DNA of 64,000 nucleotides from IMG/VR virus record IMGVR_UViG_3300007512_000025, positions 1 to 64,000 of that record; one strand, written 5' to 3'. The notes under the pieces are model-generated. The model did not search any database, was not told where the DNA came from, and saw nothing but the letters and a program-made list of their open reading frames with translations. The stretch comes from a virus. Each line of letters starts with the position of its first letter. Within the stretch, counting starts at the first letter, position 1. The position numbers were made by a program, and so were the translations under genes. Shown one piece after another: positions 11,394 to 57,374 of the stretch.

Positions 11394-14300
11394 ATGGCAG
11401 GTAACGGACCAAGCGTAAGCCCAGAACAACTAGCAATGATGGACCAGCTTAATCAAAAGCTGGCAAGTGCAGAAGTTACCGCAGCCGAGTACGCTGAAGC
11501 TGTAAAGCAAGGCGGGCTTGAGACTGCTCATGCGGTAACTCAACTGGATGCGATGATAGCCAAGTTCCAGACTCTTCTGGACAACGCTAACAAGCTGGGT
11601 ATTTCCCTCGGGCAAATCCAGACGCTTCAGGGTAGCCTTAATGATGCCCAAGCTGAATCAAATTCTCTGAAAAACGGCGAGTTAACCCTTCAAGAATCCA
11701 CAAGCGCCAAGATAGCACAAAAGAAGGCAAAGCAGGATAAGCTAACCGCCGCCCAGAAAGCGTTCAATAAAGAAATTGAAGGTGCGAATGTTTGGGGTCA
11801 AGATTTCTTAATGAAACTCGCCCAAGGCGAGACTGCCATGGAAGCCCTTATTGGCAAAGGTGCCAACCTTAACAGTGTAATGGATAAAATCGGCGCAGGC
11901 GCGATGTTAGCCATGCGAGATTCATTCCTTGCAACGATTGGAACTGCCGACAACATGCAAGCCTCGTTCAACGCAATGTCGGGGCAAGCAGGTGCGATGA
12001 ATGACACCATCCTGAGCGCCCACCGTGGTGTTGGCTCGCTTGGCGTCAGTATGGAAAAATCAGGCGCAGCAGCGCAAGCACTTTATTCAGATTTTAATCA
12101 GTTCTCCAGCATGAATTCTAGCCTGCAAACAGAAATGATTCAAACAACTGCTTCGTTGGAAAACTTGGGTATTTCTTCTGCCACCACCGCAGGCAATATC
12201 GCTTTGGCAACAAATGCATTTGGAATGACGGCAACAGAATCGGTTGCACTACAGGATGACCTAGCAAAAACCGCAATGGCTATTGGTATGCCCCCTGCAA
12301 CGCTTGCAGCCGAATTCGCCAAAGCCGCTCCGCAGCTTTCAGTATACGGCGCAAAGGGCATCGAGGTCTTCAAGAACATGGCAGCAGCCTCCAAGGGCTT
12401 GGGCATGGAAATGGGCACCCTCCTTAATCTGACTTCACAATTTGATACGTTTGAGGGCGCAGCCAATGCCGCTGGCAGCTTGAACTCAATCCTCGGAGGC
12501 GACTTGCTCAACTCCATGGATATGCTCAATGCCACGGAAGACGAAAGAATTAGAATGATTCTTCAGGCGACAGATGCTTCTGGTAAGCAGTGGTCAACCA
12601 TGGGCAAGTTTGAGAAGATGGCGGTTGCTAATGCTGCTGGCATCACAGACATGGCTGAGGCAAATAAATTATTTGGCGGCGGGCTTAAAGGCTACGACGA
12701 TGCTCAGAAGGCAATGGCAGACAACGCTGTAGCTGAAGCTGAACTGGCTGAGGCTAAAGCAGCAGCAGTCTCCATGGGCGAAAAGATGAAGATTATGATG
12801 CAGCAACTTGCGGTCGCAATACAACCTGCAATTAATTTTGTTCATGCAATGTTGAACGGTGTCTTGAAACTTAATGATGCTTTCGGCGGCGTGTTGCTTC
12901 CGGTTCTGGTTGGCGGCATCGCGGTAATTTGGGCGGGTGTCAACGCTTTTCAGTTTTATCAGAAAGCGCAAAAAGCAGTCGCCATCGGCAAAGCTTTGCT
13001 CGCTGGCGAATCCCTAAAAGAAGTAGCTGCATCAGGTGCGAGTGCCGCTGCTAAAGGAACAGAAGGCGTAGCCTGTGGCGCATTAGCGACATGCAAGAAA
13101 TTTGAAAAAGCAGCCACGGACTCAAGCACTCGTTCCACAAATATGGGCGTCTTGGCACACATTCGGTCAGGCGCTATCAAAGTAGCCAATACCGCTAGGA
13201 CTTGGGCTTTGCTCGCCGCAGAAAGGGCACTCACAGCAGTGAGATGGCTCGGGGCGAAAGCGTCAGCGTTCATGGCTTGGGCACTTGGTGGTCAGGCTTC
13301 TGCTCAAACCCTCGTCGCCAGAACAGCCAAACCAGCCGCTGCTGCATCAGGGAGTTTCGGGAAAGCGATGCAGACGCTCGGTCATCCAAAAGTCCTCATC
13401 GGCATCGCTGCCATTGCCCTCCTTGCCCTCGGGCTAGGAGTTCTGGCTCACGGTGTTGCAAAGATTATTGGGGGGCTGACTGAAATGCTTCGGCTTTTTA
13501 TGTCGGCACCGGACGCAATCATCCCCGCAGTTCTTGGGCTGGCAATGGTCGCTGCTGTAGTTTATGGCATCGCATGGGCTTTCGCTACGCTCGCTCCAAT
13601 CGCACCCCTCGCGATGATGGCTATGATTCAGATTGGTATCGGCATGATGTTTCTTGCGGTTCCCATAATGCTGTTGTCTGTGGGCATAGCGATGATGGGT
13701 AACGCACTGGCATTGATGGATACAGCGACGATGTTACAGTTCGCAATGGTGTTGCCAATCTTTGCGTGGGCTTTGATGGCTTCTATTGTTCCAATGATGA
13801 TTGCCGCAGCATTCTTTGCACCCGCCGCTTTCGCCATCGGTCTTGGTTTAGCATTTATTGGTCTTGGTCTTCAATTAATTGCACCTAATGTTTCTAGTAT
13901 GCCCATGCTCGCCATCGGCTTGATGGCTCTCGGATGGGGCTTGCTCGCTGCCGCTTTCCCAATGTGGCTTGCGTCAATCTTTTTTGCGCCCGCTGCGGTT
14001 CTTGTCGGCATCGGCTTGGCTGCACTTGGTCTGGGCTTGAATCTTATTGCCCCCAATGTTGGTGCCATGCCGGGTGTTGCTCTGGGCTTGGTCGCGCTTG
14101 GTTGGGGCTTATACGCCGCAGCCTTCCCAATGTGGCTCGCCTCAATCTTTTTTGCACCCGCAGCGATTTTTGTCGGCATTGGTTTGGCTGCGCTCGGTCT
14201 GGGCTTAAAATTAATCGTACCACATGTACCAGCAATGGCAATGCTAGGTCCAAACTTGATTCTTCTCGCCATTGGTCTTTATTTTGCAGTGCCACTACTT

Positions 14301-16214
14301 CTCGCTGTTGGTATTCCTTTGGTCATCGCAGGCATACTTATTGGATATGGTGGGTTGATGTTGGGGCTGGGTCTGGGTGCCCTTGGTTTGGGCGTCGGAA
14401 AGTTAATGCCGCATCTTCCAAACATGGGCTTGCTTGCTATAATGTTGCCGCTCCTTGCTGCTGCTCTGATGTGGTCAGCTACCCCGCTTCTTATTGCAGG
14501 CGTCTTGCTGCTCGCCGCTGGCGTGCCATTTGGTTTGGGCGCAGCGATGATTGGCATCGGACTCTGGGCACTTACAGCTACGTCCGCAGATTGGCCAACA
14601 TTATTGATTTTGCCTGCCGTCGCCATGGCATTGATGATGGCTGCTCCGATGTTATTCTGGGCGGGGCTTGCGATGCTCAACGCAGGACCGGGATTTATTG
14701 TTGGCGCAATTTTGATTGGAATTGGTATGGCGATTCTTGCGAATCCGTTGATGCAATTTGCTCAGGCGATTGCGGTTCTAGGTCCGTTTATTCCCGCACT
14801 GCCAGCTTTGGCAATGGGTCTAATCATGCTCGGCTTTGCCTTGCCAATCTTTGGATTTGGATTGTTGATGCTTGGCATCGTTGCTTCACTGCCGTTCTTC
14901 TCTACGGGGCTTGATGTTTTAACTGAGGCACTTTATGTGTTTGCAGACGCAATGTCTGGAATTCCAACAGAGAAAGCTGTGGCGCTTGGACAAATTTTCC
15001 AAGGCTTGGGCGGGCTGACTGACATGGCTGGCGTCGGCTCTGCGCTGATGGATTTCTCTTGGGGTGTTATGTTCTTGGGCTATGCCCTGACCTTCATGCC
15101 CGATGGTGCCGACTTGATGGCGATGGCAGAAGGACTCAAGATGTTCGCGGAGACAGGCGCAAAACATGTTCTACCTGTATCCATTGCTCTTTATTCAGCC
15201 GCACCTTATCTACTCGCAGCAGCATTTTTACTGGCACCAGCAGCCTTCTGGCTTGCAGTCGCTGGTCCACCTCTTGCATGGGCGATGTTCTGGATATCGA
15301 CAGCATTCGGCTTCATGGGCGAGGGGCCAGCGAAGGCTGGCATGGAAGCGGTTAACCAGAATTTCTTGGGAGCAGCAATTGGATTGTTTATTGGTGCGCC
15401 TTTGTTATTCTTTGCTTCTATATGGTTATTCTTTGCTGCACCGCTGTTCTTTATCGCCGCCTTCTTTATTGCCTTGGGAATGTCGATGCTGAACGAGCCG
15501 CTGTTGCAGTTTACGATGACCATGCTGTTATTGGCACCCATCGCGGGAGCCTTACCTGCGCTAGCGTATGGTTTGTTCTTGCTGGGACTCGCTTTGCCTG
15601 TCTTTGGGTGGGGATTGTTTATGCTCGGCATCTTTGCTTCTCTACCATTCTTCCGTACAGGGCTTAGTGTACTCACTGAAGCACTTTATATATTCGCTGA
15701 TGCCATGTCTACAATTCCAGTTGAGAAGGCGGTCGCTCTTGGGCAGATTTTCACGGGTCTTGCTGCAATGACAGATATGGATGCGATGGCTGACGGGCTA
15801 TACACTGTTGCCGGGGCAATCTGGTTCCTGTCTTGGATTATGGGAACCATCCCAGAAGAAACATTAATGAAGATGAAGATGGTCTTTGACACTGCCCTTG
15901 ACCCACTTAATCAATTGGCAACAAACTTGACCCCAGAGGTGGTTACAAACGCCAGCGGTCTGGTAACAGAGGCTGAACGGTATGGTATCGCTCAGGCGTC
16001 GATGAAGGGCTTTGACCAAGATGCATTTGCTCAGGCTGTTGTCGGCGCTGCTAAGGCTGCTGGAGGCGGCGAAGGCAGTGGTGAGAAGGGTTCCGGCGGC
16101 GGCGAAGGCGGCGGCGGCAAGGGTCAGGATGTTGTTCTGGTTCTTAACGAGAGAGAATTTGGACGTGCAATTGAAGTTTATATGAACAAGAGAATTCCTT
16201 TGGGAGTGTCCTAA
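11394..16214 (+). CDS. Tail tape measure protein with very long hydrophobic repeat region
   Basis: 1606 aa, Ala/Gly-rich helical N-half with FDTFEGAANAAGSLN-type motif; position between tail chaperones and baseplate genes. Confidence 0.85.
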   Translation: MAGNGPSVSPEQLAMMDQLNQKLASAEVTAAEYAEAVKQGGLETAHAVTQLDAMIAKFQTLLDNANKLGISLGQIQTLQGSLNDAQAESNSLKNGELTLQESTSAKIAQKKAKQDKLTAAQKAFNKEIEGANVWGQDFLMKLAQGETAMEALIGKGANLNSVMDKIGAGAMLAMRDSFLATIGTADNMQASFNAMSGQAGAMNDTILSAHRGVGSLGVSMEKSGAAAQALYSDFNQFSSMNSSLQTEMIQTTASLENLGISSATTAGNIALATNAFGMTATESVALQDDLAKTAMAIGMPPATLAAEFAKAAPQLSVYGAKGIEVFKNMAAASKGLGMEMGTLLNLTSQFDTFEGAANAAGSLNSILGGDLLNSMDMLNATEDERIRMILQATDASGKQWSTMGKFEKMAVANAAGITDMAEANKLFGGGLKGYDDAQKAMADNAVAEAELAEAKAAAVSMGEKMKIMMQQLAVAIQPAINFVHAMLNGVLKLNDAFGGVLLPVLVGGIAVIWAGVNAFQFYQKAQKAVAIGKALLAGESLKEVAASGASAAAKGTEGVACGALATCKKFEKAATDSSTRSTNMGVLAHIRSGAIKVANTARTWALLAAERALTAVRWLGAKASAFMAWALGGQASAQTLVARTAKPAAAASGSFGKAMQTLGHPKVLIGIAAIALLALGLGVLAHGVAKIIGGLTEMLRLFMSAPDAIIPAVLGLAMVAAVVYGIAWAFATLAPIAPLAMMAMIQIGIGMMFLAVPIMLLSVGIAMMGNALALMDTATMLQFAMVLPIFAWALMASIVPMMIAAAFFAPAAFAIGLGLAFIGLGLQLIAPNVSSMPMLAIGLMALGWGLLAAAFPMWLASIFFAPAAVLVGIGLAALGLGLNLIAPNVGAMPGVALGLVALGWGLYAAAFPMWLASIFFAPAAIFVGIGLAALGLGLKLIVPHVPAMAMLGPNLILLAIGLYFAVPLLLAVGIPLVIAGILIGYGGLMLGLGLGALGLGVGKLMPHLPNMGLLAIMLPLLAAALMWSATPLLIAGVLLLAAGVPFGLGAAMIGIGLWALTATSADWPTLLILPAVAMALMMAAPMLFWAGLAMLNAGPGFIVGAILIGIGMAILANPLMQFAQAIAVLGPFIPALPALAMGLIMLGFALPIFGFGLLMLGIVASLPFFSTGLDVLTEALYVFADAMSGIPTEKAVALGQIFQGLGGLTDMAGVGSALMDFSWGVMFLGYALTFMPDGADLMAMAEGLKMFAETGAKHVLPVSIALYSAAPYLLAAAFLLAPAAFWLAVAGPPLAWAMFWISTAFGFMGEGPAKAGMEAVNQNFLGAAIGLFIGAPLLFFASIWLFFAAPLFFIAAFFIALGMSMLNEPLLQFTMTMLLLAPIAGALPALAYGLFLLGLALPVFGWGLFMLGIFASLPFFRTGLSVLTEALYIFADAMSTIPVEKAVALGQIFTGLAAMTDMDAMADGLYTVAGAIWFLSWIMGTIPEETLMKMKMVFDTALDPLNQLATNLTPEVVTNASGLVTEAERYGIAQASMKGFDQDAFAQAVVGAAKAAGGGEGSGEKGSGGGEGGGGKGQDVVLVLNEREFGRAIEVYMNKRIPLGVS
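13791..14294 (+). repeat. Three tandem 168-nt (56-aa) hydrophobic repeats within tape measure
   Basis: PMWLASIFFAPAA..VGIGLAALGLGL.LI.P.V unit; TTCCCAATGTGGCT at 13956 and 14124. Confidence 0.85.
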
Positions 16215-21207: not shown

Positions 21208-22392
21208 ATGCTGTTTCAGACACTTGATGACAAGGCAGAGTGCTTTGGCATATATGCGGATGGTCATGTCTACTATGAGAACCTTCCAAACGACCTGACA
21301 AGGACGTGGAATTATTCAAGCCACCTCGGTGCGGCACCGATTGAGTACGCTCAGATGCTCTGTGGCGGTCGTTCGCTGGCAGAAGTATGCCCAGCCCACC
21401 TCAAGCCAGAGTGGGAAGCTGTCACTCATCAGATGAGGGCATATTTAAATTCTTTTCGTGAAGCTAAAATTTCGCTCAATGAACATTGCTTCTATAACTT
21501 GGTTCCCGAGCGTTTTCTGGTTGATTTGTGTGAGGCTAAAAATAGTATTTGTGAATTTGTTTTTGAAAATTATCAGAAGCCAGAAAACTATGATTTCATG
21601 ATGGATGTTGTTCGCCTCACCACGGATATAAACAATCATCGCCTCTGTATCGACAAGCATCCCATGCGCTCTCGGCTCGGCACTCATCAGGGTCGCCTCT
21701 TGTGGCGCACCTTGGACGCTATGAGTCGCTATATTAAATACAATGCGTATGGCACCAAGACCGGGCGGCTCTCAACAGTCAAGGGAAGCTTCCCAATACT
21801 GACATTGAATAAAGATTTTCGCAGCATCTTGGTTCCAAACAATGACTGGCTGGTCGAACTTGATTTCAATGCCGCTGAGTTGAGGACGCTCCTTGGCTTG
21901 TCTGGGCTGCAACAGCCAGTCGATGACATTCACATGTGGAATGTAAAAAACGTATACGCTGGGCAACTCACTAGAGATGAGGCAAAGCAGAAGATATTTG
22001 CATGGCTCTACAACCCCGAGGCGACTGACACTAGATGTAGCAAGGCATACAAGAGGGGCGAAGTCTTGGGAGAGTATTGGGACGGGCAGACAGTTGCGAC
22101 TCCATTTAATAGGAAAATTCCTGCCGACAAGAAACATGCGCTCAACTATTTAATACAAAGCACCTCCAGCGATGTCTTTTTAGACCGAGCGGTGGCTGTT
22201 CATGAATTTCTTAAAGACAAGAAAAGTCATATTTCAATGCTCATTCACGACAGCATTGTTCTTGACTTGGCTGAGTGTGATATGCCCGAGTTGAAAAAAA
22301 TTGTTAACATTTTCTCTGAAACGCGGTATGGTAAGTACAAGGTTGGCGTTAGTGCTGGAAAGACCTTTGGTGATTTGCGGAGGATTCGATGA
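21208..22392 (+). CDS. polA: Minimal family A DNA polymerase (polymerase domain only)
   Basis: TGRLS, motif A ELDFNAAELR, motif B RDEAK..IF..LY, ALNYLIQS, motif C IHDS. Confidence 0.85.
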   Translation: MLFQTLDDKAECFGIYADGHVYYENLPNDLTRTWNYSSHLGAAPIEYAQMLCGGRSLAEVCPAHLKPEWEAVTHQMRAYLNSFREAKISLNEHCFYNLVPERFLVDLCEAKNSICEFVFENYQKPENYDFMMDVVRLTTDINNHRLCIDKHPMRSRLGTHQGRLLWRTLDAMSRYIKYNAYGTKTGRLSTVKGSFPILTLNKDFRSILVPNNDWLVELDFNAAELRTLLGLSGLQQPVDDIHMWNVKNVYAGQLTRDEAKQKIFAWLYNPEATDTRCSKAYKRGEVLGEYWDGQTVATPFNRKIPADKKHALNYLIQSTSSDVFLDRAVAVHEFLKDKKSHISMLIHDSIVLDLAECDMPELKKIVNIFSETRYGKYKVGVSAGKTFGDLRRIR

Positions 22393-23261
22393 ATGTTATT
22401 GGGCTTGGTTCTGCTGGCTGTGCTATCGCCGATTCTCTAGATAAATATTCGCAGTACGATATCTATAAGCTTGACAATGGTCTTGAGCGTAAAGGCAATA
22501 CATATCCAATCGCCATTCAACGGACACACGAAGAATATGATAAGGAGCCAATTAAGCTGACTCAGTTTATCTCGCGGATGAAGAAGTCTGATACGTTGCT
22601 CTTTATTCTTGGCGGCGGCGGTGCCATCTCTGGGGCGTCTTTGCAGGTATTGCGCCAGCTTCATAAGAAGTATCCGAATTCAATTGATATTATGTACATC
22701 AAGCCAGATGTGGAATTGCTTTCTGAACTCGGTCGGCTCAGGGACAGGGTTTGCTTTCGGGTTCTTCAGGAGTATGCAAGGTCAGGTGTCTTTCGTTCGA
22801 TTTTGCTGGTGAGCAATCCACACATTGAGGCTGCGATTGGTGATGTGCCAATAAAAAATTATTATGAAAATATGAATAATTTTATCGCCTATGCGTATCA
22901 TATGCAGAACGTCTTTAGAAACACCCAGCCAGAGATTTCATCTTTGTCCAGTAGCAAGCCCGAACATGTGCGACTGTGGACGCTTGGAGTTTTGGACGTA
23001 GAAAAAAATGAAGAAAAATTGTTTTTTCCCCTTGACAAGCCCACCGAGAAGTGTTATTATTATGGCATCAATGAAGAAAGGCTGGAAACAGATGGGAAAC
23101 TACTAAGAGAAATACGGAAACAGGTTAAGGCTAACTCAGAACAGGCTGGGGCACCGTGTTCGTATGCCATCCACTCTACATCTTATGAAGATGATATGGC
23201 ATATGTAACTTGCTGGTCGAGTCAAATTCAGGCGTACCCTGAAAACTATCAAAGCTTATAA
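22389..23261 (+). CDS. Tubulin/FtsZ-family (PhuZ-like) protein, divergent
   Basis: N-terminal VIGLGSAGCAIA, degenerate signature LGGGGAISGAS, I.P, LVSN, N..IA. Confidence 0.75.
   Translation: MNVIGLGSAGCAIADSLDKYSQYDIYKLDNGLERKGNTYPIAIQRTHEEYDKEPIKLTQFISRMKKSDTLLFILGGGGAISGASLQVLRQLHKKYPNSIDIMYIKPDVELLSELGRLRDRVCFRVLQEYARSGVFRSILLVSNPHIEAAIGDVPIKNYYENMNNFIAYAYHMQNVFRNTQPEISSLSSSKPEHVRLWTLGVLDVEKNEEKLFFPLDKPTEKCYYYGINEERLETDGKLLREIRKQVKANSEQAGAPCSYAIHSTSYEDDMAYVTCWSSQIQAYPENYQSL
23032..23060 (+). promoter_or_regulatory. Sigma70-like promoter within tubulin CDS
   Basis: TTGACA-N17-TATTAT with TG. Confidence 0.5.
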
Positions 23262-23558: not shown

Positions 23559-23585
23559 TTTATTTTAAAAAAGTGAAAAAAGTCC

Positions 23586-23614
23586 TTGACAAGACTTGCA
23601 GCACATGTTATATT
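23586..23614 (+). promoter_or_regulatory. Sigma70-like promoter
   Basis: A-rich UP tract, TTGACA-N17-TATATT, TG extension, intergenic. Confidence 0.8.
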
Positions 23615-23649
23615 GTTATCACATTCAAACACAAAGAAAGGAGAGTTGA

Positions 23650-23946
23650 ATGATTGCACAGCGCGGAACCTTCGTTAAAGCCAACGGGGAGGAACGACAG
23701 ATGAACTTTGTTCGTCTGGACAACCTGCCAGATAGCTTTATGGATAAGAACACACTTGGGACTGGCACTGCGCCAAGTCTATCAGAGGGGCAAGAGCTTG
23801 TCTGGGACTTGGATGCTAGTGGCTTCCGTGTGTTCAACTGGAAGACAGCTATCGGTGATGTCATCGAATACAGGCTTCCAAACAAGCAAGAAGTTTCTTC
23901 AGAAAATTCTGAGATTCCTCTTAACAACACGACGGAAATCGTGTAA
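23650..23946 (+). CDS. Hypothetical protein (small SH3/WYL-like beta fold)
   Basis: SD AAGGAG; F.KANGE.R.M...VWDLD..GFR.FNW pattern. Confidence 0.75.
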   Translation: MIAQRGTFVKANGEERQMNFVRLDNLPDSFMDKNTLGTGTAPSLSEGQELVWDLDASGFRVFNWKTAIGDVIEYRLPNKQEVSSENSEIPLNNTTEIV

Positions 23947-24025
23947 AATACAAACCAGATGCTCGGAAGATTTGCCGAGTATACTAAAGGGTAATTTACC
24001 CGCCATTAACACAAAGGAGAATAAA

Positions 24026-24793
24026 ATGGCTATTGATATGAGCAAAATGAAGTCGAAGCTGAATTCGGTACAAAACCGTGGGAGTTCACGCACTTCACAA
24101 TTCTGGCGTCCCTCGGACGGGGACCAGACTATTCGCATCGTTCCAACTGCGGACGGCGACCCCTTCAAGGAGTATTGGTTCCACTATAATGTGGGCAAGA
24201 ATGCAGGCTTCTTGAGTCCCAAGAAGAATTTTGGCGAGGATGACCCACTGGATTCATTCGTTCGTCAACTCTTTAATGAGGGCACTGAAGAAAGCATCAA
24301 GATGGCTAAGAACTTGATGGCGCGTCAGCGTTTCTTCTCTCCCGTCATTGTTCGGGGCGAGGAAGCCAAGGGCGTCCGTATCTGGGGCTATGGTAGGACT
24401 GTGTACGAGCAGCTTCTCAACCTTGTCCTCAATCCAGAGTATGGGGATATTACTGACCCCGATTCTGGCACAGACCTTCACCTAAATTACGGGAAGCCTG
24501 CTGGCGCATCCTTTCCGCAGACTAAGCTGATGCCATCTCGTCGTACTTCTACTATCTGCCCAAATATTACTGAGGCAGAATGTGCGGAGTTGCTTGAGTC
24601 TATTCCAGACTTCGGTACACTCTTTGAGAAGAAGTCTTCAGAAGACGTACAGCGTATGCTGGACGAATATCTGGCTGATGACGAGTCGGCAGAGGACATG
24701 TCCACTGAAACAAATCGCTATGGCGGCAACACTACCTCCCAAAGCAGCACTGCCAATAGCGTTGAAAGCGCATTCAACGAACTTCTTGGGTGA
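24026..24793 (+). CDS. Single-stranded DNA-binding protein (T4 gp32-like)
   Basis: SD AAGGAG before ATG 24026; FWRP....TIRIVP, YGDITDP..G.D, acidic C-terminus ending AFNELLG. Confidence 0.85.
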   Translation: MAIDMSKMKSKLNSVQNRGSSRTSQFWRPSDGDQTIRIVPTADGDPFKEYWFHYNVGKNAGFLSPKKNFGEDDPLDSFVRQLFNEGTEESIKMAKNLMARQRFFSPVIVRGEEAKGVRIWGYGRTVYEQLLNLVLNPEYGDITDPDSGTDLHLNYGKPAGASFPQTKLMPSRRTSTICPNITEAECAELLESIPDFGTLFEKKSSEDVQRMLDEYLADDESAEDMSTETNRYGGNTTSQSSTANSVESAFNELLG

Positions 24794-24802
24794 TAGCTTT
24801 TA

Positions 24803-24838
24803 TGACCCACGGGGGGGCACAGGGTTATCAGGTGCCCC
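24803..24838 (+). ncRNA. H-type pseudoknot RNA motif, copy 1
   Basis: TGACCC-ACGGG-GGGGCAC-A-GGGTTA-TCAG-GTGCCCC. Confidence 0.7.
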
Positions 24839-24849
24839 ACACTTTTACA

Positions 24850-24885
24850 ATACCCACAGGCAGGCACAGGGTTATCAGGTGCCTG
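24850..24885 (+). ncRNA. H-type pseudoknot RNA motif, copy 2
   Basis: ATACCC-ACAGG-CAGGCAC-A-GGGTTA-TCAG-GTGCCTG. Confidence 0.7.
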
Positions 24886-24911
24886 ATTTAACAATAAAGG
24901 AATTTTTTATT

Positions 24912-25370
24912 ATGAACGCAAAAAGCGGAAACTCAGTCACCGTCCACTACACTGGAACACTGGATGATGGCACAGAATTTGATACCTCCCGAGGGAGAGA
25001 ACCAGTCACCTTTACTCTAGGCTCTGGGCAGTTGATTTCTGGCTTCGATACTGCTGTCACTGGAATGACAGTGGGTGAGGTCAAGGAGGTTGTTCTGTCG
25101 CCAGCAGAGGCATACGGCGAGACGAACCCAGAGTTGACTCAGACGGTTTCACAGCAAGCCTTCCCAGAGGGCTTTGAGTTTGTCGTTGGTGGACAGGTTA
25201 TGGGTCAAAGCCCACAAGGTCCAGTCATGGCGACCATCTTGGAACTTGAGGACAACGAGGTCAAGCTTGATATGAATCATCCGATGGCAGGTAAGAATCT
25301 TAATTTTAAAATTGAGGTTGTTTCTATCGAAGAATCGGCTGAAGGTGGTGCGGCTGCATCAGAAGAATAA
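24912..25370 (+). CDS. FKBP-type peptidyl-prolyl isomerase (SlyD/SlpA-like)
   Basis: VTVHYTGTLDDGTEFDTS, GQLISGFD, PAEAYGE, LDMNHPMAGKNLNF. Confidence 0.95.
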   Translation: MNAKSGNSVTVHYTGTLDDGTEFDTSRGREPVTFTLGSGQLISGFDTAVTGMTVGEVKEVVLSPAEAYGETNPELTQTVSQQAFPEGFEFVVGGQVMGQSPQGPVMATILELEDNEVKLDMNHPMAGKNLNFKIEVVSIEESAEGGAAASEE

Positions 25371-25376
25371 TTTAGA

Positions 25377-25409
25377 TATCCGCAGGGAGGCACGGGATAC
25401 AGGTGCCTC
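25377..25409 (+). ncRNA. H-type pseudoknot RNA motif, copy 3
   Basis: TATCC-GCAGG-GAGGCAC-G-GGATA-CAG-GTGCCTC; compensatory changes in both stems. Confidence 0.7.
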
Positions 25410-25432
25410 AAATTCATTAGGAGAAAAATAAA

Positions 25433-25567
25433 ATGATGAAAATGATGAAGGTTGTTACCATCCTACCCCTCGCGCTAATGCTGGCGTGTGGTGATAAGGA
25501 TGAGCAAGACAGCGGTTCCGATAGTGGAGTCGTAGAAGAAGGTGGCGACACCGGAGGGGCAGAGTAA
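25433..25567 (+). CDS. Small acidic lipoprotein (44 aa, not in ORF track)
   Basis: SD AGGAG; MMKMMKVVTILPLALMLA-CGDKDEQDSGSDSG...GDTGGAE; stop overlaps next ATG. Confidence 0.7.
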   Translation: MMKMMKVVTILPLALMLACGDKDEQDSGSDSGVVEEGGDTGGAE

Positions 25568-25818
25568 TGACTGCAATTTTTACTAATCGTTGGGTTCAGG
25601 CAGGCTTGGCTGTATCAGCAATTATCGTTGGAGTGTTGGTTTTTAACCATAGCGAAGACGCTACTGTTGCTACAACTGAGGCGGCTCAGACACCAGTTAC
25701 AACCGTTGCATCGCCAGATAATGCCGATGCAGCAGCAACGACGGAGGCGAGCCTTGAGACTATCGAGCCTGTCACCGAAGATGCTGAAGCGGCTGAAACC
25801 ACAGAAGCGACTGAGTAG
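25567..25818 (+). CDS. Small membrane-anchored Ala/Thr/Glu-rich protein
   Basis: N-terminal TM helix plus low-complexity tail. Confidence 0.65.
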   Translation: MTAIFTNRWVQAGLAVSAIIVGVLVFNHSEDATVATTEAAQTPVTTVASPDNADAAATTEASLETIEPVTEDAEAAETTEATE

Positions 25819-25825
25819 TATATCA

Positions 25826-25861
25826 TAACCCACAGGGGGGCACAGGGTTAACAGGTGTCCC
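25826..25861 (+). ncRNA. H-type pseudoknot RNA motif, copy 4
   Basis: TAACCC-ACAGG-GGGGCAC-A-GGGTTA-ACAG-GTGTCCC. Confidence 0.7.
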
Positions 25862-25892
25862 ACTTTCTAATTTTAATAATAGTGGAGATTGC

Positions 25893-27026
25893 ATGATGGC
25901 AACGAAAAAAACAAAGGTTGGCAAACTTTCTATTGCCGATATGCGTAAGATGATTAATAAGCGAGCGGGTCAAGACGTTGCTTACAATCTCACAGAGGAT
26001 AACCCAACGGAAGTTAAGCAGTGGATTCCCACTGGTGCCCGTTGGCTTGATAGTATTATCTGTCGAGGGCAATTGGCTGGAATTCCAGTCGGTAAGGTTA
26101 CTGAGATTGCGGGGCTTCAGTCTACTGGTAAATCGTACATGGCTGCACAAGTCGCAGCTAACGCTCAAAAGCAAGACATTGATGTGGTGTACTTTGATGC
26201 GGAGTCTGCGATTGACCCCGGCTTCTTAGAGAAGGCTGGCTGCGACTTGGAAAAGATTCTTTATGTTCAAGCCGAGTCGGTCGAGTTCGTCTTGGAGACT
26301 ATTGAAGATTTGCTTGGGTCGGCAGAAAATAAACTCTTGTTTATCTGGGACTCGCTGGCGCTGACACCAAGCACTACGGACATCGCAGGAGACTTTAACC
26401 CGCTGAGTTCTATGGCTGTGAAGCCACGAATTCTCTCAAAGGGCATGGCTAAGTTGGTTCAGCCTATTGCCAATGCCGAGGCTACCCTGCTTGTACTCAA
26501 CCAGTTGAAGACAAATATTACTAGTAATGTTGCAGAGGCAATGACCACCCCATACTTTACACCGGGCGGCAAGGCGATGCACTATACTTACAGCTTGAGG
26601 ATTTGGCTTACGGGTCGCAAGGCTAAGGCATCGTTCATTATGGATGACCATGGCTTTCGGATTGGCTCCGAGGTCAAAGTTAAACTTGAGAAGTCGCGGT
26701 TCGGAACGCAGGGCAGGCAGTGTGCCTTTAAGATTCTCTGGGGCGACGATGTGGGAATTAAGGATAGGGATAGTTGGTTAGAAGCTGTCAAGGGTTCTAA
26801 GCACTTGACATCTGGCGGTGCGTGGTATACATTGACTCACAAGGACGGCACGACTGAAAAGTTTCAAAGCGCCACTTGGCTCCAGAAACTTGAAAATAAA
26901 AAGTTTTATGACCGTATCTTGGAGTTGATGGACGAAGAAATTATTCTTCGTTTCGACAGTCGAGAAGGTAATGCTTCCGACTTCTACGACATCGCCGACC
27001 AAGGAGGTGATGTATCAAAAAGTTAG
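25893..27026 (+). CDS. recA: RecA/UvsX recombinase
   Basis: GIPVGKVTEIAGLQSTGKS Walker A, YFDAESAID, IWDS, NQLK, TPGGKA. Confidence 0.95.
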   Translation: MMATKKTKVGKLSIADMRKMINKRAGQDVAYNLTEDNPTEVKQWIPTGARWLDSIICRGQLAGIPVGKVTEIAGLQSTGKSYMAAQVAANAQKQDIDVVYFDAESAIDPGFLEKAGCDLEKILYVQAESVEFVLETIEDLLGSAENKLLFIWDSLALTPSTTDIAGDFNPLSSMAVKPRILSKGMAKLVQPIANAEATLLVLNQLKTNITSNVAEAMTTPYFTPGGKAMHYTYSLRIWLTGRKAKASFIMDDHGFRIGSEVKVKLEKSRFGTQGRQCAFKILWGDDVGIKDRDSWLEAVKGSKHLTSGGAWYTLTHKDGTTEKFQSATWLQKLENKKFYDRILELMDEEIILRFDSREGNASDFYDIADQGGDVSKS

Positions 27027-27039
27027 TGAAAGAAAGTAC

Positions 27040-27069
27040 TTGACAGCTTGCCCTCACTTGTGCTATACT
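27040..27069 (+). promoter_or_regulatory. Sigma70-like promoter overlapping terminator
   Basis: TTGACA-N18-TATACT. Confidence 0.65.
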
Positions 27070-27094
27070 GTTGGTAACAAGTGGGGGTTTTTTT
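27051..27094 (+). terminator. Intrinsic terminator after recA
   Basis: CCCTCACTTGT...ACAAGTGGGGG followed by T7. Confidence 0.75.
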
Positions 27095-27138
27095 CTCACT
27101 GGGCGGTAACGGTGTGTAAAGAAACACGGGGCTTGAAG

Positions 27139-29903: not shown

Positions 29904-32327
29904 ATGTACAATGAAGATGAAGTAAGGGAGGCGACCCTTCAATATTTTAATGGTGATGAACTTGCCACAAATGTTTTCATTACCAAGTATTGCCTCCGCG
30001 ATAAGCAGGGGAATTTTGTGGAAAAAACTCCAAGAGACATGCACAACCGCATGGCTGCGGAGTTTGCAAGGATTGAGAAGAAGTATGGTGGACCTAGAGC
30101 ATTAAGTCAGGATAAGATTGTTGAATATTTCGATAATTTTAAGTACATTGTGCCCCAAGGTTCGCCAATGATGGGGGTTGGAAATGATTATGTTAATGTC
30201 TCGCTATCAAATTGCGTTGTGGTCGAGTCACCAGCAGATAACATTTCCTCAATCATTAACTCTGGTCGAGATTTGGCTAATTTGTTTAAGCGTCGTTGCG
30301 GCGTTGGGCTTGACCTCTCTGATTTGCGACCGGATGGCGCACAGGTAAATAATTCTGCTGGAACAACCACGGGTGCTTGGTCATTCGCAGACCTCTATTC
30401 TTATGTGTGCCGCATGATTGGTCAGAACGGTCGCCGTGGCGCACTTATGATTACGATGGATGTGCGCCATCCAGATATTGAACAGTTTGTTACCATGAAG
30501 CACGACTTAACAAAAGTGACAGGAGCAAATGTTTCTGTCAAGATAAGCGATGACTTCATGTCGGCGGTACAAAATAAGCGGTCGTTTACTTTGACTTATC
30601 CAGTCGGCTCTGAAAACCCCAAGTACACAAAAGAGGTTCAAGCCGAAGAACTCTGGAATACCATTGTTGAGTCGGCGACCACCACCGCCGAACCCGGTAT
30701 TTTAATGTGGGACAACATTATTAATAACCTGCCTGCACATTCTTATGCTGAAGATGGGTTTGCTACGATTTGCACGAACCCGTGCGCGGAAATCCCTCTC
30801 TCTGCTTATGACTCTTGCAGGCTGATTTCTATTAATTTAAAAAACTTTGTCACGGGACCGTTCACGGTCCACGCAAAGTTTAAATTTAAAAAGTTTACCG
30901 AAGTTGTCTCAGCCGCAATGAGATTGTCGGATGACTTGGTTGACTTGGAACTTGAAAAGCTACAAACAATTATTGAATTAGCGGACACTCCAGATGAAAA
31001 AGAGTTGTGGAGCAAACTGTACGTTGCAGCCCGAGATGGGCGCAGGACAGGTCTTGGGACTCACGGCTTGGCAGATGCCTTGGCTTGCCTTAACATGGGA
31101 TACGACTCCGACGAAGGGCTTGCGATGATTTCTCGCATCTATGCTTGTCTTCGTGATACCGCTTATCAGGAGAGTGTCAATCTCTCGACCGAGCGAAGCC
31201 AATTCCCCGTATTTTCTTGGAATAAAGAAAGGAACAATGGGTATATCAAAAGGCTTCCCGAGACATTGCAGCGGGCAATCGCACGGCATGGAAGAAGGAA
31301 CATTTCTCTTTTGACGAACGCACCCACTGGTTCTGTTTCAATTCTTTCACAAACCTCGTCGGGGCTGGAGCCTGTATTTAGAAACTCTTATGTACGTCGC
31401 CGAAAGATGAGCCATGACGAGAGCGACATCGAACCAGATTTTGTTGATGACCTCGGTGACCGCTGGAAAGAATTTGAAGTGTTCCATCACAACGTGGAGC
31501 AGTGGAGGGCAATGAACGAAGGAAAGGACTTGCCCGCCTTCTTTGTTGAGTCCGACCAGATTGATTGGACACGTCGTGTTGAAATTCAGCAGGCGATTCA
31601 AGACAACATCGACCACGCAATTAGTTCTACAATTAATTTGCCCGCTGGCACCGAGCCATCGGTTGTGGGCAACTTATATCTTGAGGGCTGGCGTCGAGGG
31701 CTGAAGGGCGTGACTGTGTACGTCGATGGAAGCCGTTCAGGTGTCCTTGTGTCTAATGACGATGCGGCACAAACCACTGGCTTTCCACACCACACCGCAC
31801 CCAAGCGTCCAGAGGTTGTCGATTGCGACATCCACCACACCACCATTCAGGGGGAGAAGTGGGTTGTGCTTGTTGGCTTGTTAGATGATAAGCCTTATGA
31901 AGTTTTGGCTGGCGAAGCGAGCCTGATTGAGATTCCAAAGAAATATAATAAAGGAAGCTTGACCAAGCACAGTTACAAAACAAGAAATAACCGATACGAT
32001 TTATCATTTGGATACAACGGCGACACGATTAATATTAAGGATGTGGTCAAGGTATTCGATAACCCCAGCAACGCTTCATTCACCCGCATGATTTCACTTG
32101 GGCTACGTCATGGCGCACGTCCGAGGTTCATGGTGGAACAGTTGCAGAAAGATAAAAACAGCGACATGTTCAGCTTCGCAAGGTGCATCGCTCGCATCCT
32201 AAAGAATTATATTCAGGATGGCGAGTTGCCCAGCGACAAGGTGTGCGAGGCTTGTGCAGCAGAGACTTTGATTTACCAAGATGGCTGCGTCACTTGTACT
32301 TCCTGCGGCTATGCGAAGTGTGGATAA
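29904..32327 (+). CDS. nrdJ: Class II (adenosylcobalamin-dependent) ribonucleotide reductase
   Basis: SNC, TNPCAEI, APTGS, SSTIN, GVTVY.DGSR, C-terminal Zn ribbon ending CGYAKCG; no beta subunit adjacent. Confidence 0.92.
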   Translation: MYNEDEVREATLQYFNGDELATNVFITKYCLRDKQGNFVEKTPRDMHNRMAAEFARIEKKYGGPRALSQDKIVEYFDNFKYIVPQGSPMMGVGNDYVNVSLSNCVVVESPADNISSIINSGRDLANLFKRRCGVGLDLSDLRPDGAQVNNSAGTTTGAWSFADLYSYVCRMIGQNGRRGALMITMDVRHPDIEQFVTMKHDLTKVTGANVSVKISDDFMSAVQNKRSFTLTYPVGSENPKYTKEVQAEELWNTIVESATTTAEPGILMWDNIINNLPAHSYAEDGFATICTNPCAEIPLSAYDSCRLISINLKNFVTGPFTVHAKFKFKKFTEVVSAAMRLSDDLVDLELEKLQTIIELADTPDEKELWSKLYVAARDGRRTGLGTHGLADALACLNMGYDSDEGLAMISRIYACLRDTAYQESVNLSTERSQFPVFSWNKERNNGYIKRLPETLQRAIARHGRRNISLLTNAPTGSVSILSQTSSGLEPVFRNSYVRRRKMSHDESDIEPDFVDDLGDRWKEFEVFHHNVEQWRAMNEGKDLPAFFVESDQIDWTRRVEIQQAIQDNIDHAISSTINLPAGTEPSVVGNLYLEGWRRGLKGVTVYVDGSRSGVLVSNDDAAQTTGFPHHTAPKRPEVVDCDIHHTTIQGEKWVVLVGLLDDKPYEVLAGEASLIEIPKKYNKGSLTKHSYKTRNNRYDLSFGYNGDTINIKDVVKVFDNPSNASFTRMISLGLRHGARPRFMVEQLQKDKNSDMFSFARCIARILKNYIQDGELPSDKVCEACAAETLIYQDGCVTCTSCGYAKCG

Positions 32328-32344
32328 AAAAATAAAAAAAGTCC

Positions 32345-32373
32345 TTGACAAACGGGTCAAGATAGGGTATATT
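32345..32373 (+). promoter_or_regulatory. Sigma70-like promoter
   Basis: A-tract, TTGACA-N17-TATATT, intergenic. Confidence 0.8.
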
Positions 32374-32412
32374 AGTATAGTAAAACAAACCAACAAACAA
32401 AAGGAGTTTGGT

Positions 32413-34600: not shown

Positions 34601-34832
34601 GAGAACCTTTGACGATATGTCTTATACAGATAAGGAAATGGCGGGGCTACCAGTAAGGTATTTTTTGCTTGACACCAACATAAAATTATTTTTGGAAAAT
34701 TTCGTTGAATCACTTGACAAACCCGACCAATCTGATAATATAGAGGATGTCACAATGGCGCGAGAGTTAATGGTTGAGGCGTCCGAGATTTTACTGGTTG
34801 CTATTAAGAGGATGTGTCCTGATGCGAAATAA
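34584..34832 (+). CDS. Hypothetical protein
   Basis: SD GGAGG before GTG; fills gap before dnaE. Confidence 0.55.
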   Translation: MQNQIERTFDDMSYTDKEMAGLPVRYFLLDTNIKLFLENFVESLDKPDQSDNIEDVTMARELMVEASEILLVAIKRMCPDAK

Positions 34833-37800
34833 TTCTACTATTCCATTCGTTGGGCTTCACGCTCACTCTGTGGCGGGTTCTCCGTTCGATGCGCTTGGTT
34901 ACCCCCAAGAGCATATGGACTACGCTTATAATAATGGCATGGAAGCCCTTGCGCTAACCGACCACGGCAACTGCAATGGCTTGGCTCATCAAGTCTTGCA
35001 CACGAAGAAGATGCGAGCCGAAGGAAAAGAATTTAAGCCGATTTACGGTGTTGAGGCGTATTTCCATCCGTCCATCGCGGGCTGGAAGGACGATTATGAT
35101 GAAGCCAAGAAAGTCAAGAAGAATGCTTCTGCACTCAAGGACGGCAGCACAGGCGGCGCAGTGGTCGAAGACGAACAGAGGCACTTCAAGGGGCTGGTGA
35201 ATCGTCGCAATCATCTTATTCTGCTGGCTCAGAACCAGACAGGCTTGAATAACATTTTCAAGATGGTGTCAGACTCGTTCTCAGGCGATAACTACTATCG
35301 CTTCCCCCGTGTTGATTATGAATTGCTTGCCAAGCACTCTGAGGGCGTTATCGCCGCCTCTGCGTGCCTTGGTGGGGTTTATGCTGGCTGCATGTGGCGA
35401 AACGCAGTATATGACGATGAGGGCAATCGGACACGCTTCGATGAAGTGGGGATTCTTGCTGATATGCGGGAAACAACAAGCCAGATGCAAGAGATTTTTG
35501 GTGACCGCTGGTATGGCGAACTTCAGTGGAATAATATTCCAGAGCAGCATCTATTGAACCAGTACATTATTAAAATGTCCGAAGAATTTGGCATGAAGCT
35601 GATTTCTACGGCTGATAGTCACTATCCAAATCCAGATGCATGGAAAGACCGTATTCTTTATAAGAGGCTTGGCTGGCTGGGTCGCAAGGACGAGGTTCCC
35701 TCCGAGTTGCCTGCGGGCTTGGATGAGGTTGGCTATGAGTTGTATCCCAAGAATGGCGACCAGATGTGGGAATCATATTTAAACTATTCTAAGGAATGTG
35801 ACGTTGACTATAATGATGACGTTGTAAGGGCTTCTATCACAGAGACTCACAACATTGCGATGAATCTCATCGAGAATTTTCTACCAGACTCTACTGTGCG
35901 CCTCCCAGACTTTGTTGTGCCCGAGGGCAAGACTGCAACACAGGCTTTGGTGGCACTGTGCTTGGACGGGATGCGGAGCATGGGGTTGATGGAGAAGCCC
36001 GAGTATGTGGCACGCCTGAAGAAAGAACTTGAAATCATCGACAGCCGTGGGTTCAGCAAATATTTCTTGACTATGAAGGCGGTCGCTGACAAGGCTGTTG
36101 AAACTCAGCTTGTTGGTCCGGGTCGCGGCTCCGCTGCTGGCTCGCTTGCATCTTATGTCTTGAACATCACGCAAGTTGACCCCATTAAGTACGGTCTGCT
36201 GTTCAGCCGCTTCATGCGTTCCGATGCGAAGGACTACCCCGACATTGATTATGATGTTGCGGAGCCTATGGAGTTGAAGGAGCGTCTGGCAGAAGAATGG
36301 GGCAGGAATACGGTTGTTCCTATCTCTAATTGGAACACTCTACAGCTTCGCTCTCTGATTAAGGACATCTCAAAATTCTATCAGATTCCGTTTGTCGAGG
36401 TGAACGCCGTGACGGGACGGATGCTGCATGAGGCTACTCCCAAAGCAAAGCGCAAACACGGCATCACAGCGGGCGTCTATGCTCCCACCTTTGAAGAAGT
36501 AATGGAGTTCTCAGAAACGCTCCAGTCGTTCTTGCGGAAGTATCCACACGTCAAAACACACGTCGAGGCGTTGTACGGGCAGGTTCGTTCTTGCTCTCGC
36601 CACGCGGGTGGCGTTGTGATTGCCGAAAACTTGGATAAGTACATGCCGCTTATTACTAGCGGGGGTGTGCGACAGGCTCCGTGGTCAGAGGGTCAGAATG
36701 TTCGACATCTTGAGCCAATGGGGTTTATTAAGTTCGATATCCTTGGACTGGCTTCACTCCGCATGATGCACAACTGTATTAAGAATATTCTTCGCAGGCA
36801 TCATGGAAATGATAATCCGACCTTTAACGAAGTTCGTGATTTCTATGACAAGCAGCTTCACCCAGATGTTATAAATTTTGATGACCAAGATGTTTATGAA
36901 AATATTTTTCACAAGGGTCGTTGGGCAGGAATCTTTCAGTTTACTGAAGCCGGGGCACAAACATTTTGTGTCAATGCGAAGCCGAGAAGTATCATTGATA
37001 TTTCTGCCATCACTTCTATCTTTCGTCCGGGTCCGTTGTCGGCAAAGGTCGATAAGAATTATGTCGAAGCCAAGGAGAATCCCGCTGGCATTAAGTATCT
37101 CAATGATACCGTCCGTGAGGTGACCGAAGAAACTTTTGGCTTCCTTATCTTCCAAGAGCAGATTGCATTGCTGGCTCACAAGCTGGGCGGCTTGACGCTC
37201 GATGAGGGCAACATGCTTCGCAAGGTTCTGACCAAGAAGGGCACGGGCAAGGGCAACATTAAAATTAAGTTGCGCGATAAGTTTGTTGGTGGCTGTTCTG
37301 AGAAGGGCATCTCTGTGCGAGATTCGGAAAAGCTTTGGGAGACATTTGAGTTCTTCTCGGGCTATGGCTTCAATAAGTCGCACGCCGTTTCATACAGCAT
37401 TCTGTCTTATCAGTGCGCTTGGTTGTTCCACTACTATCCAGTAGAATGGATTGCTGCGTTCTTGGACAAGGAGCCAGAGTCCCGCAAGGAGCGTGCTATC
37501 AATGCTGCGAAGAAGATGGGCTTTGAGGTTGTGCCGATTGACATTAATATGTCTGATAGGGACTGGCAGATTGCCGATGACACTACGCTGGTGCAACCAT
37601 TTTCTTCTGTGAAGGGCTTGGGCGATGCAGCGATTGACCAAATACTAAACAATCGACCGTTTACTGATATTGAACACTTTCTTTTCAACGACGATATGGT
37701 TTATTCTAAGCTGAACAAGAAGGCGCTGGATGTGTTAGTTCGGAGTCAAGCATTAAATAGCCTGATGGATGAACGGTTCACTGGTCGGAAACACTTTTGG

Positions 37801-55839: not shown

Positions 55840-56240
55840 AACAGTTAATGGAAAATTGGCGACGATACCTCAAAGAGAACTATGAAGTTCCTCCCGTCCT
55901 TTATCACGCAAGCTATGGACCGCTAATCCCATCTATTCAGAAAGATGGTCTTGGTGGCGACAGAGAAACATATTGGGAAGACTCTGCTCGTGGTGTTGTC
56001 TATCTTGCGCTTGACCCCGAAGTGGCATTTTCTTATGCCGAAACATCTGACGATGCGTGGGATAAGTTTGAGGGTGAAGATGGACTAGAGATTGTCATCA
56101 TGGAAATAGACACCACACAATTGAACCCAGAGTTATTCAAGTTGGACAGCAACGTGGCAGACAATGAGGGCGACACAGTTGAGTATCATGGTGTTGTTCA
56201 GCCTGCTGCAATTAAGGTTGTCGATAAGAGGATTGCATAG
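55836..56240 (+). CDS. Leader-tagged ADP-ribosyltransferase-fold (Tpt1/KptA C-domain-like) protein
   Basis: MKQLMENWRRYLKE; LYHAS....SI.KDGL, VYLA.D...A, VIMEID...L, V.P..I. Confidence 0.7.
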   Translation: MKQLMENWRRYLKENYEVPPVLYHASYGPLIPSIQKDGLGGDRETYWEDSARGVVYLALDPEVAFSYAETSDDAWDKFEGEDGLEIVIMEIDTTQLNPELFKLDSNVADNEGDTVEYHGVVQPAAIKVVDKRIA

Positions 56241-57288: not shown

Positions 57289-57308
57289 ATATAATGGAAT
57301 CAGCGAAC

Positions 57309-57374
57309 CACTTGCCAGATGAGAAAAAGTCTAAGAAAACCCTTGACATGGAAAGGGACGAAGGAGGTAAATAA
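57309..57374 (+). repeat. ~65-bp direct repeat of 56618-56683
   Basis: CCAGATGAGAAAAAGTCTAAGAA.AC.CTTGACATGGAAAGGGA shared. Confidence 0.85.

Follow-up and report, generated by a model that had tools for sequence, protein, structure and literature searches.

Between a gene for a gp32-like single-strand DNA-binding protein (SSB; gene ssb) and a gene for a RecA/UvsX-like recombinase (recA), a viral DNA stretch of 64,000 nucleotides (nt), positions 1 to 64,000 of IMG/VR record IMGVR_UViG_3300007512_000025 and called the window below, carries four copies of an RNA element with a core of about 33 nt. Judged by its covariation, the element is an H-type pseudoknot on the mRNA strand and represents a well-supported RNA family that is absent from Rfam. 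Its place is 3′ of ssb, with additional copies behind the genes that are inserted before recA. We favor, with a confidence that stays somewhat below even, a function as a leaky terminator or processing stop, capping the ssb and cassette messages at their 3′ ends and also serving as a cassette junction.

All four copies are intergenic and lie on the plus strand. Copy 1 (24803–24839) begins 9 nt past the ssb stop codon and pairs 24803–24808 with 24822–24827 as the first stem, S1 (TGACCC/GGGTTA), and 24814–24820 with 24832–24838 as the second stem, S2 (GGGGCAC/GTGCCCC); its first loop, L1, is ACGGG, the junction base is A, the last loop, L3, is TCAG and an A trails the fold (covariance model score 55.5 bits). 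Copy 2 (24852–24886; 56 bits) follows in tandem, 13 nt on and with no gene between, with S1 at 24852–24855/24869–24872 (ACCC/GGGT), L1 ACAGG and S2 at 24861–24867/24879–24885 (CAGGCAC/GTGCCTG); the start codon of a peptidyl-prolyl isomerase (PPIase) gene lies 26 nt beyond it. Copy 3 (25377–25410; 48.5 bits) stands 6 nt past the PPIase stop codon and 23 nt before the next start codon, and has S1 at 25377–25381/25395–25399 (TATCC/GGATA), L1 GCAGG and S2 at 25387–25393/25403–25409 (GAGGCAC/GTGCCTC). Copy 4 (25826–25862; 58.1 bits) stands 7 nt past the stop codon of an 83-aa open reading frame (ORF) and 31 nt before the recA start codon, with S1 at 25826–25831/25845–25850 (TAACCC/GGGTTA), L1 ACAGG and S2 at 25837–25843/25855–25861 (GGGGCAC/GTGTCCC, one G·U pair). 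Copies 1, 2 and 4 are of type A, while copy 3 is of type B, which has a G after S1, a G at the junction and an L3 that is shorter by one base.

A pattern that leaves the variable stem bases free matches exactly four sites, in the window as in the whole 77,427-base record, and shuffled sequences give 0.00 matches. The covariance model, run over the record with filters off, returns the same four sites at 48–58 bits, followed by a next best match of only 8.4 bits. By the same model, no copy is present in the ssb leader (23947–24025) or elsewhere in the window outside the ssb-to-recA unit. The leader itself holds two small hairpins, CTCGG...CCGAG and GGGTAA...TTACCC. The S2 hairpin is the minimum-free-energy fold of all four copies on the plus strand (−12.9 to −16.7 kcal/mol), whereas on the minus strand the copies fold worse and copy 4 does not fold at all.

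These results agree with a first-pass annotation of the window, which had described four intergenic plus-strand elements of about 35 nt: pattern and covariance model find them where it had placed them, and its stem pairs, its two G·U positions and its spacers to the next start codon (26, 23 and 31 nt) are correct. Two of its details changed. Its copy 2 is a real site, but the start given at 24850 includes two unpaired bases, and S1 begins at 24852. An S1 of 5–6 base pairs (bp) is present in the window copies but is not a feature of the family, in which only the inner three pairs, NCC/GGN, are conserved.

The family was delimited by two routes. A pattern scan of IMG/VR, with the inner S2 bases and the loop end fixed, gave at least 119 loci; among those listed, about 55 also show the 5′ part CC-N-C-R-GG-NN, on which the pattern had placed no constraint. 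A covariance model built from 53 copies has 76 matches in the pattern-found loci. For an independent set, we picked 77 loci by homology of the SSB protein and not by the motif, and these contain 72 model matches. Together, the two sets give 92 distinct sequences from roughly 100 IMG/VR contigs, with the consensus N-CC-R-C-R-GG / GAGGCAC / R / GG-N / (U)UA(U)CAG / GUGCCUC / A.

Searching Rfam 15 at gathering thresholds with the whole window returned no match, and at E-values up to 10 the interval 24700–25950 gave only chance-level hits to U12, BjrC68 and mir-4637. The comparison with Rfam that the first-pass annotation had proposed consequently places the motif in no known family. A 2023 catalogue drawn from IMG/VR counts 8,495 structured-RNA candidates without names, of which twelve lie upstream of gp32 genes (PMC10690425), and the motif may already be listed there without description. 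Among cellular genomes, 3 of the at least 120 loci listed have the full motif, all on short contigs of metagenome-assembled genomes that resemble binned phage DNA; the scan gave no evidence for a cellular home of the motif. Microcystis phage Mel-JY01 (33% identity), the nearest relative in culture, lacks the motif and has 8 nt between ssb and recA, so that no isolate offers the element. The family is carried instead by abundant uncultured marine myoviruses of roughly 180 kb.

Covariation supports both helices. Across 91 distinct copies, S2 pairs in 627 of 637 cells, and the exceptions come mostly from one truncated copy and one copy with an inserted base. Compensatory changes occur at four of the seven S2 pairs (G-C/A-U/C-G, A-U/G-C, A-U/C-G and C-G/U-A), and a further one, pair 4 of the stem, is G·U in 26 of the 91 copies. 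In S1, two C-G pairs are invariant, while the third is C-G in 42 copies, A-U in 31, U·G in 6, G-C in 3, U-A in 2 and mismatched in 7; the outer S1 pairs are present about as often as chance would give (39, 30 and 30 of 91). For the SSB-selected loci, pairing holds in 99.4% of cells, and double-sided changes are seen at 5 of 10 pairs. These changes add up to 51 cells, compared to 12.9 ± 2.6 double-changed cells in shuffles, none of which (0 of 500) reaches the observed value. When partners are slid by 1–3 columns, pairing in this set falls to 29–56% of cells. Two crossing helices with covariation in both make an H-type pseudoknot, the structured RNA and topology that the first-pass annotation had proposed.

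The single-stranded parts are constrained as well. The family keeps the loop sequences RCRGG and (U)UA(U)CAG, and the base after S1 covaries with the junction base: 54 copies have G/G, 34 have A/A and 3 are mixed, with one more U in L3 of the A/A form. Such coupling suggests that S1 is closed by a contact between two purines. A longer form is carried by five loci and has a length of 63–64 nt (L059:4421–4483 and L054:1581–1643 on the minus strand; L119:1750–1812, L170:2301–2364 and L172:2006–2069 on the plus strand), in which S1 is GCC/GGC and L3 contains an extra hairpin that itself covaries and has G·U pairs; on a tree of the SSB proteins this form makes up one clade (support 98). A CsrA-type site (ACA-GGA, across L1 and S2) and a Shine-Dalgarno mimic (GGAGG, in S2) were considered as the constraint and rejected, as these bases change together with their partners (GG/CC, AA/UU and CA/UG).

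We found that the position of the motif follows strict rules. All 72 model matches in the SSB-selected loci lie on the gene strand, all 72 are downstream of ssb and none is in an ssb leader. The G·U pairs, the worse fold of the opposite strand and this strict co-orientation with the genes together indicate that the element acts as RNA on the mRNA strand. The motif is the first feature after the ssb stop codon, at 1–21 nt, in 46 of the 75 SSB-selected relatives with enough sequence. In nearly every copy the core begins 5–17 nt past a stop codon, and the start codon of the following gene, where there is one, lies 16–31 nt past S2. A recoding signal for read-through or frameshifting was rejected: ssb ends in two stops, TGA TAG, the distance of 5–17 nt from stop codon to motif keeps no constant frame, and sister phages have plain hairpins at the same distance from the stop.

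The neighboring genes identify the constant partner as the gp32-like ssb, not recA. The motif search was blind to genes, and 44 of the ORFs upstream of copies fall into one gp32-like SSB family, while the downstream ORFs comprise 18 RecA-like genes, 7 PPIases and otherwise small ORFs. The layout ssb-M-[ORF-M]n, where M is the motif, recurs in many loci. In three loci (L019, L028 and L064) the order is ssb-motif-PPIase-recA, with a gap of 2–25 nt and no copy before recA, and in a fourth (L106) several genes, but no copy, precede recA. In a fifth (L070) a tRNA gene comes next after the ssb-linked motif. The first-pass annotation had taken the motif for a 5′-leader element that coordinates recA and its neighbors; this is not supported in that form: the copies sit behind the ssb stop codon, recA often has no copy before it, a terminator or a tRNA gene rather than a coding gene comes after some copies, and close relatives carry a plain hairpin in the same slot.

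Within a genome, the motif keeps to this one locus. In a complete relative of 180,711 bases, a single regular copy is accompanied by a weak, divergent one, whereas relatives of 192.8 and 146.7 kb have one copy each; across four large relatives, the weak copy is the sole additional match. The weak copy (L329:1497–1531, 21 bits) lies 9 nt past the stop codon of a CobS/MoxR-like ATPase gene and has S1 GGC/GCU, in which G-C replaces a C-G pair that otherwise does not vary; no other copy was seen outside an ssb-to-recA interval.

This tie to one gene raises the question of whether the SSB protein itself is the partner. Free SSB could nucleate on the pseudoknot behind its own gene and spread over the A/U-rich spacer, which would repress translation of the next cistron or alter what becomes of the ssb message; how much is made from the recombination and cassette genes downstream would then depend on SSB that is not bound to single-stranded DNA. 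We regard such an operator as unlikely, though as one to be taken seriously. That a gene-blind DNA pattern leads to 44 copies directly behind one SSB family, with the others in the ssb-to-recA interval, argues for it, and the near absence of the motif elsewhere in whole relatives suggests, when taken with the loop conservation, that a specific partner exists. Between the motif and the next start codon, the spacer is also short and A/U-rich (median 24 nt, 73% A+U), and UAAA occurs in 39% of spacers as compared to 22% of control leaders, which often overlap coding sequence. Precedents are the T4 gp32 pseudoknot operator and M13 gp5, which represses the mRNA of another gene (PMC535899). Against it, none of the 72 matches is in an ssb leader, there is no target for repression where a terminator or a tRNA gene follows the copy, the unstructured part of the T4 operator is about twice as long as the spacer, and the A/U enrichment, measured against an imperfect control, is weak evidence.

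The replacement of the motif by a plain hairpin bears on the same question. In most of the 29 relatives that lack the motif, its slot is taken by a textbook hairpin immediately ahead of the ribosome-binding site of recA, built from a G-run/C-run stem of 7–9 bp, a tetraloop and 5–8 U. On a quick maximum-likelihood tree of 73 SSBs, type A, type B, plain hairpin and absence of either are interleaved, requiring 26 label changes where the minimum is 4, and the well-supported branches alone force several. The SSB nearest to that of the window (L125) has a plain hairpin behind its gene. In a common clade with support 97, two loci have the motif (L142 and L145) and two the hairpin (L143 and L151), so that near-identical SSBs occur with either and no co-adaptation is seen. 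Therefore, a terminator-like hairpin can take the place of the pseudoknot, and the SSB protein does not track the change.

The pseudoknot also has a tail. In 83% of copies the fold is directly followed by A (+1). U makes up 57–72% at each of +4 to +8, and no copy has G at +2 to +5. The first 12 nt contain a run of four U in 42 copies and the next 12 nt in 6, a 7-fold difference. The U run is kept where no gene follows (L014, L055 and L070), and consequently belongs to the element rather than to the next ribosome-binding site. A terminator-tail rule (at least 5 U in 8 nt, starting 0–2 nt past the stem) is satisfied by 43 of 93 copies.

A single mechanism would accommodate position, tail and interchange with a hairpin. 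The pseudoknot would be transcribed within the ssb-to-recA message, 3′ of ssb and of each inserted small gene, and part of the transcripts would end or be cut at the motif, by leaky intrinsic termination, by endonuclease cleavage in the A-N-W-U-U tail, or by both. The upstream message would then end in a compact pseudoknot that resists 3′ exonucleases, and the SSB message would outlast and outnumber that of the genes behind it. In addition, a motif that is near-identical in otherwise diverged phages would offer a patch of homology for swaps of single-gene cassettes, such that every inserted gene would bring another copy. Three mechanisms had been put forward in the first-pass annotation, and its nuclease-blocking or processing element is the one that fits best; its SSB operator and its riboswitch are each judged less probable.

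Several observations weigh against a leaky terminator or processing stop. A simple terminator scan calls none of the four window copies, because the S2 loop of 11 nt is too long and the U run begins only 3–4 nt past the stem; across the family the S2 loop has 9–11 nt, outside the 3–8 nt expected of an intrinsic terminator, and the tail is of terminator grade in only about half of the copies. Three loci (L009, L014 and L035) have a canonical terminator of its own after the ssb-linked motif, which therefore does not serve as the terminator in these loci and may be a leaky first stop. More generally, a plain stabilizer or terminator needs neither invariant loop bases nor a pseudoknot, and a stabilizer would also be expected behind other highly expressed genes, yet the relatives of 147–193 kb carry one copy. 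The invariant loops and the restriction to one locus call for a specific partner, and a leaky stop names none. Nor was a transcript end seen in the RNA data described below, which are assembled contigs from which RNA ends and levels cannot be read. A poor terminator tail nevertheless suits an element that downstream transcription must pass.

A more novel reading adds a switch. A trans-acting factor would switch the pseudoknot between a state that stops and caps the message and a state that is read through, making the element a conditional terminator or riboregulator of a new class. The factor could be SSB from the cistron upstream, or a small molecule that is read by the invariant loops and the A/A or G/G contact. 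We consider this switch possible but doubtful. If it exists, it would set the ratio of SSB to recombinase in a large group of marine phages, and if SSB or a ligand reads the knot, a new regulatory class would be at hand. Capped 3′ ends, on the other hand, would make the motif a compact natural exonuclease block and a tunable intercistronic attenuator.

We compared three marine metatranscriptome runs and one DNA run with the interval 23560–27100, and drew evidence from covered stretches only. A 1009-nt RNA contig (word depth 530; runs X11 and X12) matches the window only in 36 nt of copy 2 (24849–24884); its flanks, more than 400 nt on each side, are the relative's own and comprise the end of an ORF and the leader of the next gene. 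RNA of a relative therefore spans a motif copy. The contig comes from seawater metatranscriptomes, and phages of this group appear to be actively transcribed in the sea.

The contig also bears on what could make an RNA end. The motif may be a site for another protein or an endoribonuclease, of phage or host, or a self-cleaving RNA, any of which would cut the polycistronic transcript into single-gene messages. Conserved single-stranded bases do stand beside a stable fold at every cistron boundary of the unit, and the tail A-N-W-U-U resembles the site preference of RNase E, R-N|W-U-U. However, no ribozyme family of Rfam matches, a family search of the window's proteins found no candidate nuclease gene adjoining the unit, and RNA that spans a copy at high depth shows that cutting is not complete. 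The proposal overlaps with the leaky terminator or processing stop and differs from it only in what makes the RNA end; as an explanation of its own, we find it improbable.

Two further RNA contigs of 680 and 591 nt, from two runs of one study, match 25390–25863 with 3 differences and then continue into a different leader. A near-identical relative thus diverges exactly at the end of copy 4, at 25863, which marks a mosaic junction: here a gene replacement or insertion is bounded by repeats, as in the cassettes of T4-type phages. The motif could also be read as a DNA element, a recombination or integration site of mobile single-gene cassettes whose sequence is kept by its spread between phages. 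The inserted genes are each flanked by copies, a close relative's sequence switches exactly at the motif's end, both motif types and the plain hairpin turn up in scattered places on the SSB tree, and the promoter-early stem-loop (PeSL) cassettes of T4-type phages offer a precedent (PMC2839356). Yet compensatory changes preserve two crossing helices, and many of their G·U pairs would be A-C mismatches on the other strand; the extra hairpin of the 63-nt variant has covariation and G·U pairs of its own; the orientation is always that of the genes; and a family search of the motif's neighbors finds no gene for an integrase, transposase or homing endonuclease in its company. The conservation of the motif more plausibly leads to recombination there than results from it, and we regard a purely DNA-level role as very unlikely. 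The motif also marks sites of single-gene gain and loss and will aid the reading of mosaic phage genomes.

In the unit that contains the copies, the first of them follows ssb (24026–24793, plus strand, 255 aa; Pfam PF08804 gp32, E = 1.5e-10), whose product is 46–67% identical to those of 26 relatives and whose stop codon TGA (24791–24793) is directly followed by a second stop, TAG. The FKBP-type PPIase gene (24912–25370, plus strand, 152 aa; Pfam PF00254, E = 4e-23) is a cassette gene between motif copies and has homologues behind the motif in 6 other loci. Two small plus-strand ORFs that match no family (25433–25567, 44 aa; 25567–25818, 83 aa) form a second cassette. The unit is closed by recA (25893–27026, plus strand, 377 aa; Pfam PF00154, E = 1e-34), and no copy follows it.

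A sigma-70-like promoter of repeat family D6 (TTGACA-17-TATATT, 23586–23614, plus strand, 11 of 12 matches) probably drives the whole unit, that is, a 98-aa ORF located between this promoter and ssb, then ssb, the cassettes and recA. Strong plus-strand promoters with 11 of 12 matches occur only at 23032, at 23586 and, past recA, at 27040 (27040–27069), and none adjoins a motif copy. The promoter scan found no strong promoter between 23586 and 27040, so recA must be read through four copies. Repeated early-type promoter cassettes are present at 23566–23619, 32325–32378 and 63431–63484, and also at 23032–23060 and 27040–27069; they are built from an A-rich upstream stretch, GTCCTTGACA, a spacer of 17–18 nt and TATATT or TATACT, and seem to head successive transcription units of the replication module.

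The phage that hosts the motif is a large myovirus with genes for a tail sheath, a DnaB-like helicase, ribonucleotide reductase, a DNA polymerase and GroEL. The GroEL-type chaperonin (47314–48897; PHROG 5725, E = 2e-126) is, with the FKBP-type PPIase, one of two protein-folding helpers. A 394-aa ORF (21208–22392) has only a partial match to family-A DNA polymerase, and its end is overlapped by a 290-aa ORF without a match (22389–23261); the two may be a split DNA polymerase gene. A separate DNA polymerase of 1160 aa is encoded at 34774–38256 (PHROG 405).

Other repeats occur in the window. Units of 41 nt (55837–55877, 56241–56281, 56860–56900 and 58327–58367) and of 68 nt (56614–56681 and 57305–57372), spaced by 400–1500 nt, look like conserved parts of tandem paralogous genes. 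A 1606-aa ORF (11394–16214) without a PHROG match contains an internal pair of 214-nt repeats (14817–15030 and 15570–15783, 72% identity) and four 35-nt units within 13909–14207, at spacings of 72–96 nt.

Among known RNAs, a matching layout is that of the Guanidine-III riboswitch (ykkC-III, RF01763). Block order and sizes agree, with a short C-rich S1, a 5-nt purine-rich L1 and an S2 of 7–9 bp, then a junction of 1–2 nt, the second S1 strand, a loop and the second S2 strand. In contrast, its L1 is ACGAG where the motif has RCRGG, its junction is AC in place of a single purine, its L3 has 10 nt and ends in AAAG where that of the motif has 5–7 nt and ends in CAG, and its gene context is unrelated. 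The RF01763 model has no match in the 77-kb record at E-values up to 10, while the same search finds true members in two actinobacterial genomes, used as a positive control, at 47–48 bits.

This resemblance is one argument for a small-molecule riboswitch, in which a ligand would tune either read-through, with S2 and the U run as a terminator, or how the next gene is translated. The element recalls the smallest aptamers in its size, its H-type topology and its invariant loops, copies 1 and 2 form a tandem pair behind ssb, and the A/A or G/G covariation, with 3 exceptions in 91, is typical of a tertiary contact. However, no riboswitch model of Rfam matches, Guanidine-III included; the next gene's Shine-Dalgarno sequence lies outside the fold, 8–20 nt downstream; the genes that follow are mutually unrelated (PPIase, small ORFs, protease, recombinase) and suggest no common metabolite; several copies per operon, after stop codons, are an unusual arrangement; and a plain hairpin freely replaces the motif. 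We therefore hold a riboswitch to be the least probable of the explanations considered, and a highly improbable one.

STAXI (RF01728) is a pseudoknot repeated two or three times near ssb and other DNA-handling genes, whose units are suspected to act as single-stranded DNA (Weinberg et al. 2010, PMC2864571). The motif is likewise a repeated pseudoknot near genes for single-strand DNA-binding proteins. Unlike the motif, STAXI has larger and strictly tandem units, whereas here genes separate the copies and the G·U pattern points to RNA. The RF01728 model gave no match at E-values up to 10.

The PeSL elements of T4-type phages are promoter and terminator cassettes at places where genes shuffle (Arbiol et al. 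2010, PMC2839356). Both they and the motif are short repeated stem-loop elements between small non-essential genes in a plastic region, with gene gain, loss and replacement at the repeats. The motif differs in that it has no promoter part, with no sigma-70-like hexamers adjoining its copies, in that it is a covarying pseudoknot rather than a plain stem-loop, and in that it is limited to the ssb-to-recA interval, while PeSL elements are spread through hyperplastic regions.

With intrinsic terminators and intercistronic 3′ stabilizer hairpins, the motif shares a G+C-rich stem of 7 bp soon after a stop codon, followed by a U-rich run. Where such hairpins stand in a polycistronic mRNA, the message of the upstream gene is expected to exceed those of the downstream ones. 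The motif departs from them in that its 11-nt loop pairs with the 5′ flank as a pseudoknot and has invariant bases, in that its U run is offset by 3–4 nt and absent in about half of the copies, and in its confinement to one locus per genome.

The message of T4 gp32 is a classic case of pseudoknot-based autoregulation and is unusually stable. The T4/RB69 gene 32 operator consists of a pseudoknot of about 28 nt, followed by more than 40 nt of unstructured UUAAA/UAAA sequence with the ribosome-binding site, in the leader of its own gene (PMC535899). In both systems the mRNA of a phage's gp32-type ssb carries an H-type pseudoknot about 30 nt long, and in both an unstructured A/U-rich stretch follows that can hold a ribosome-binding site. 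Unlike the operator, the motif has a spacer of about 24 nt rather than more than 40, has a U-rich tail, shares its slot with terminators, and stands behind ssb rather than in the 5′ leader, repeated after inserted genes. The knot is tied to a gp32-type ssb as in T4, but on the opposite side of the gene.

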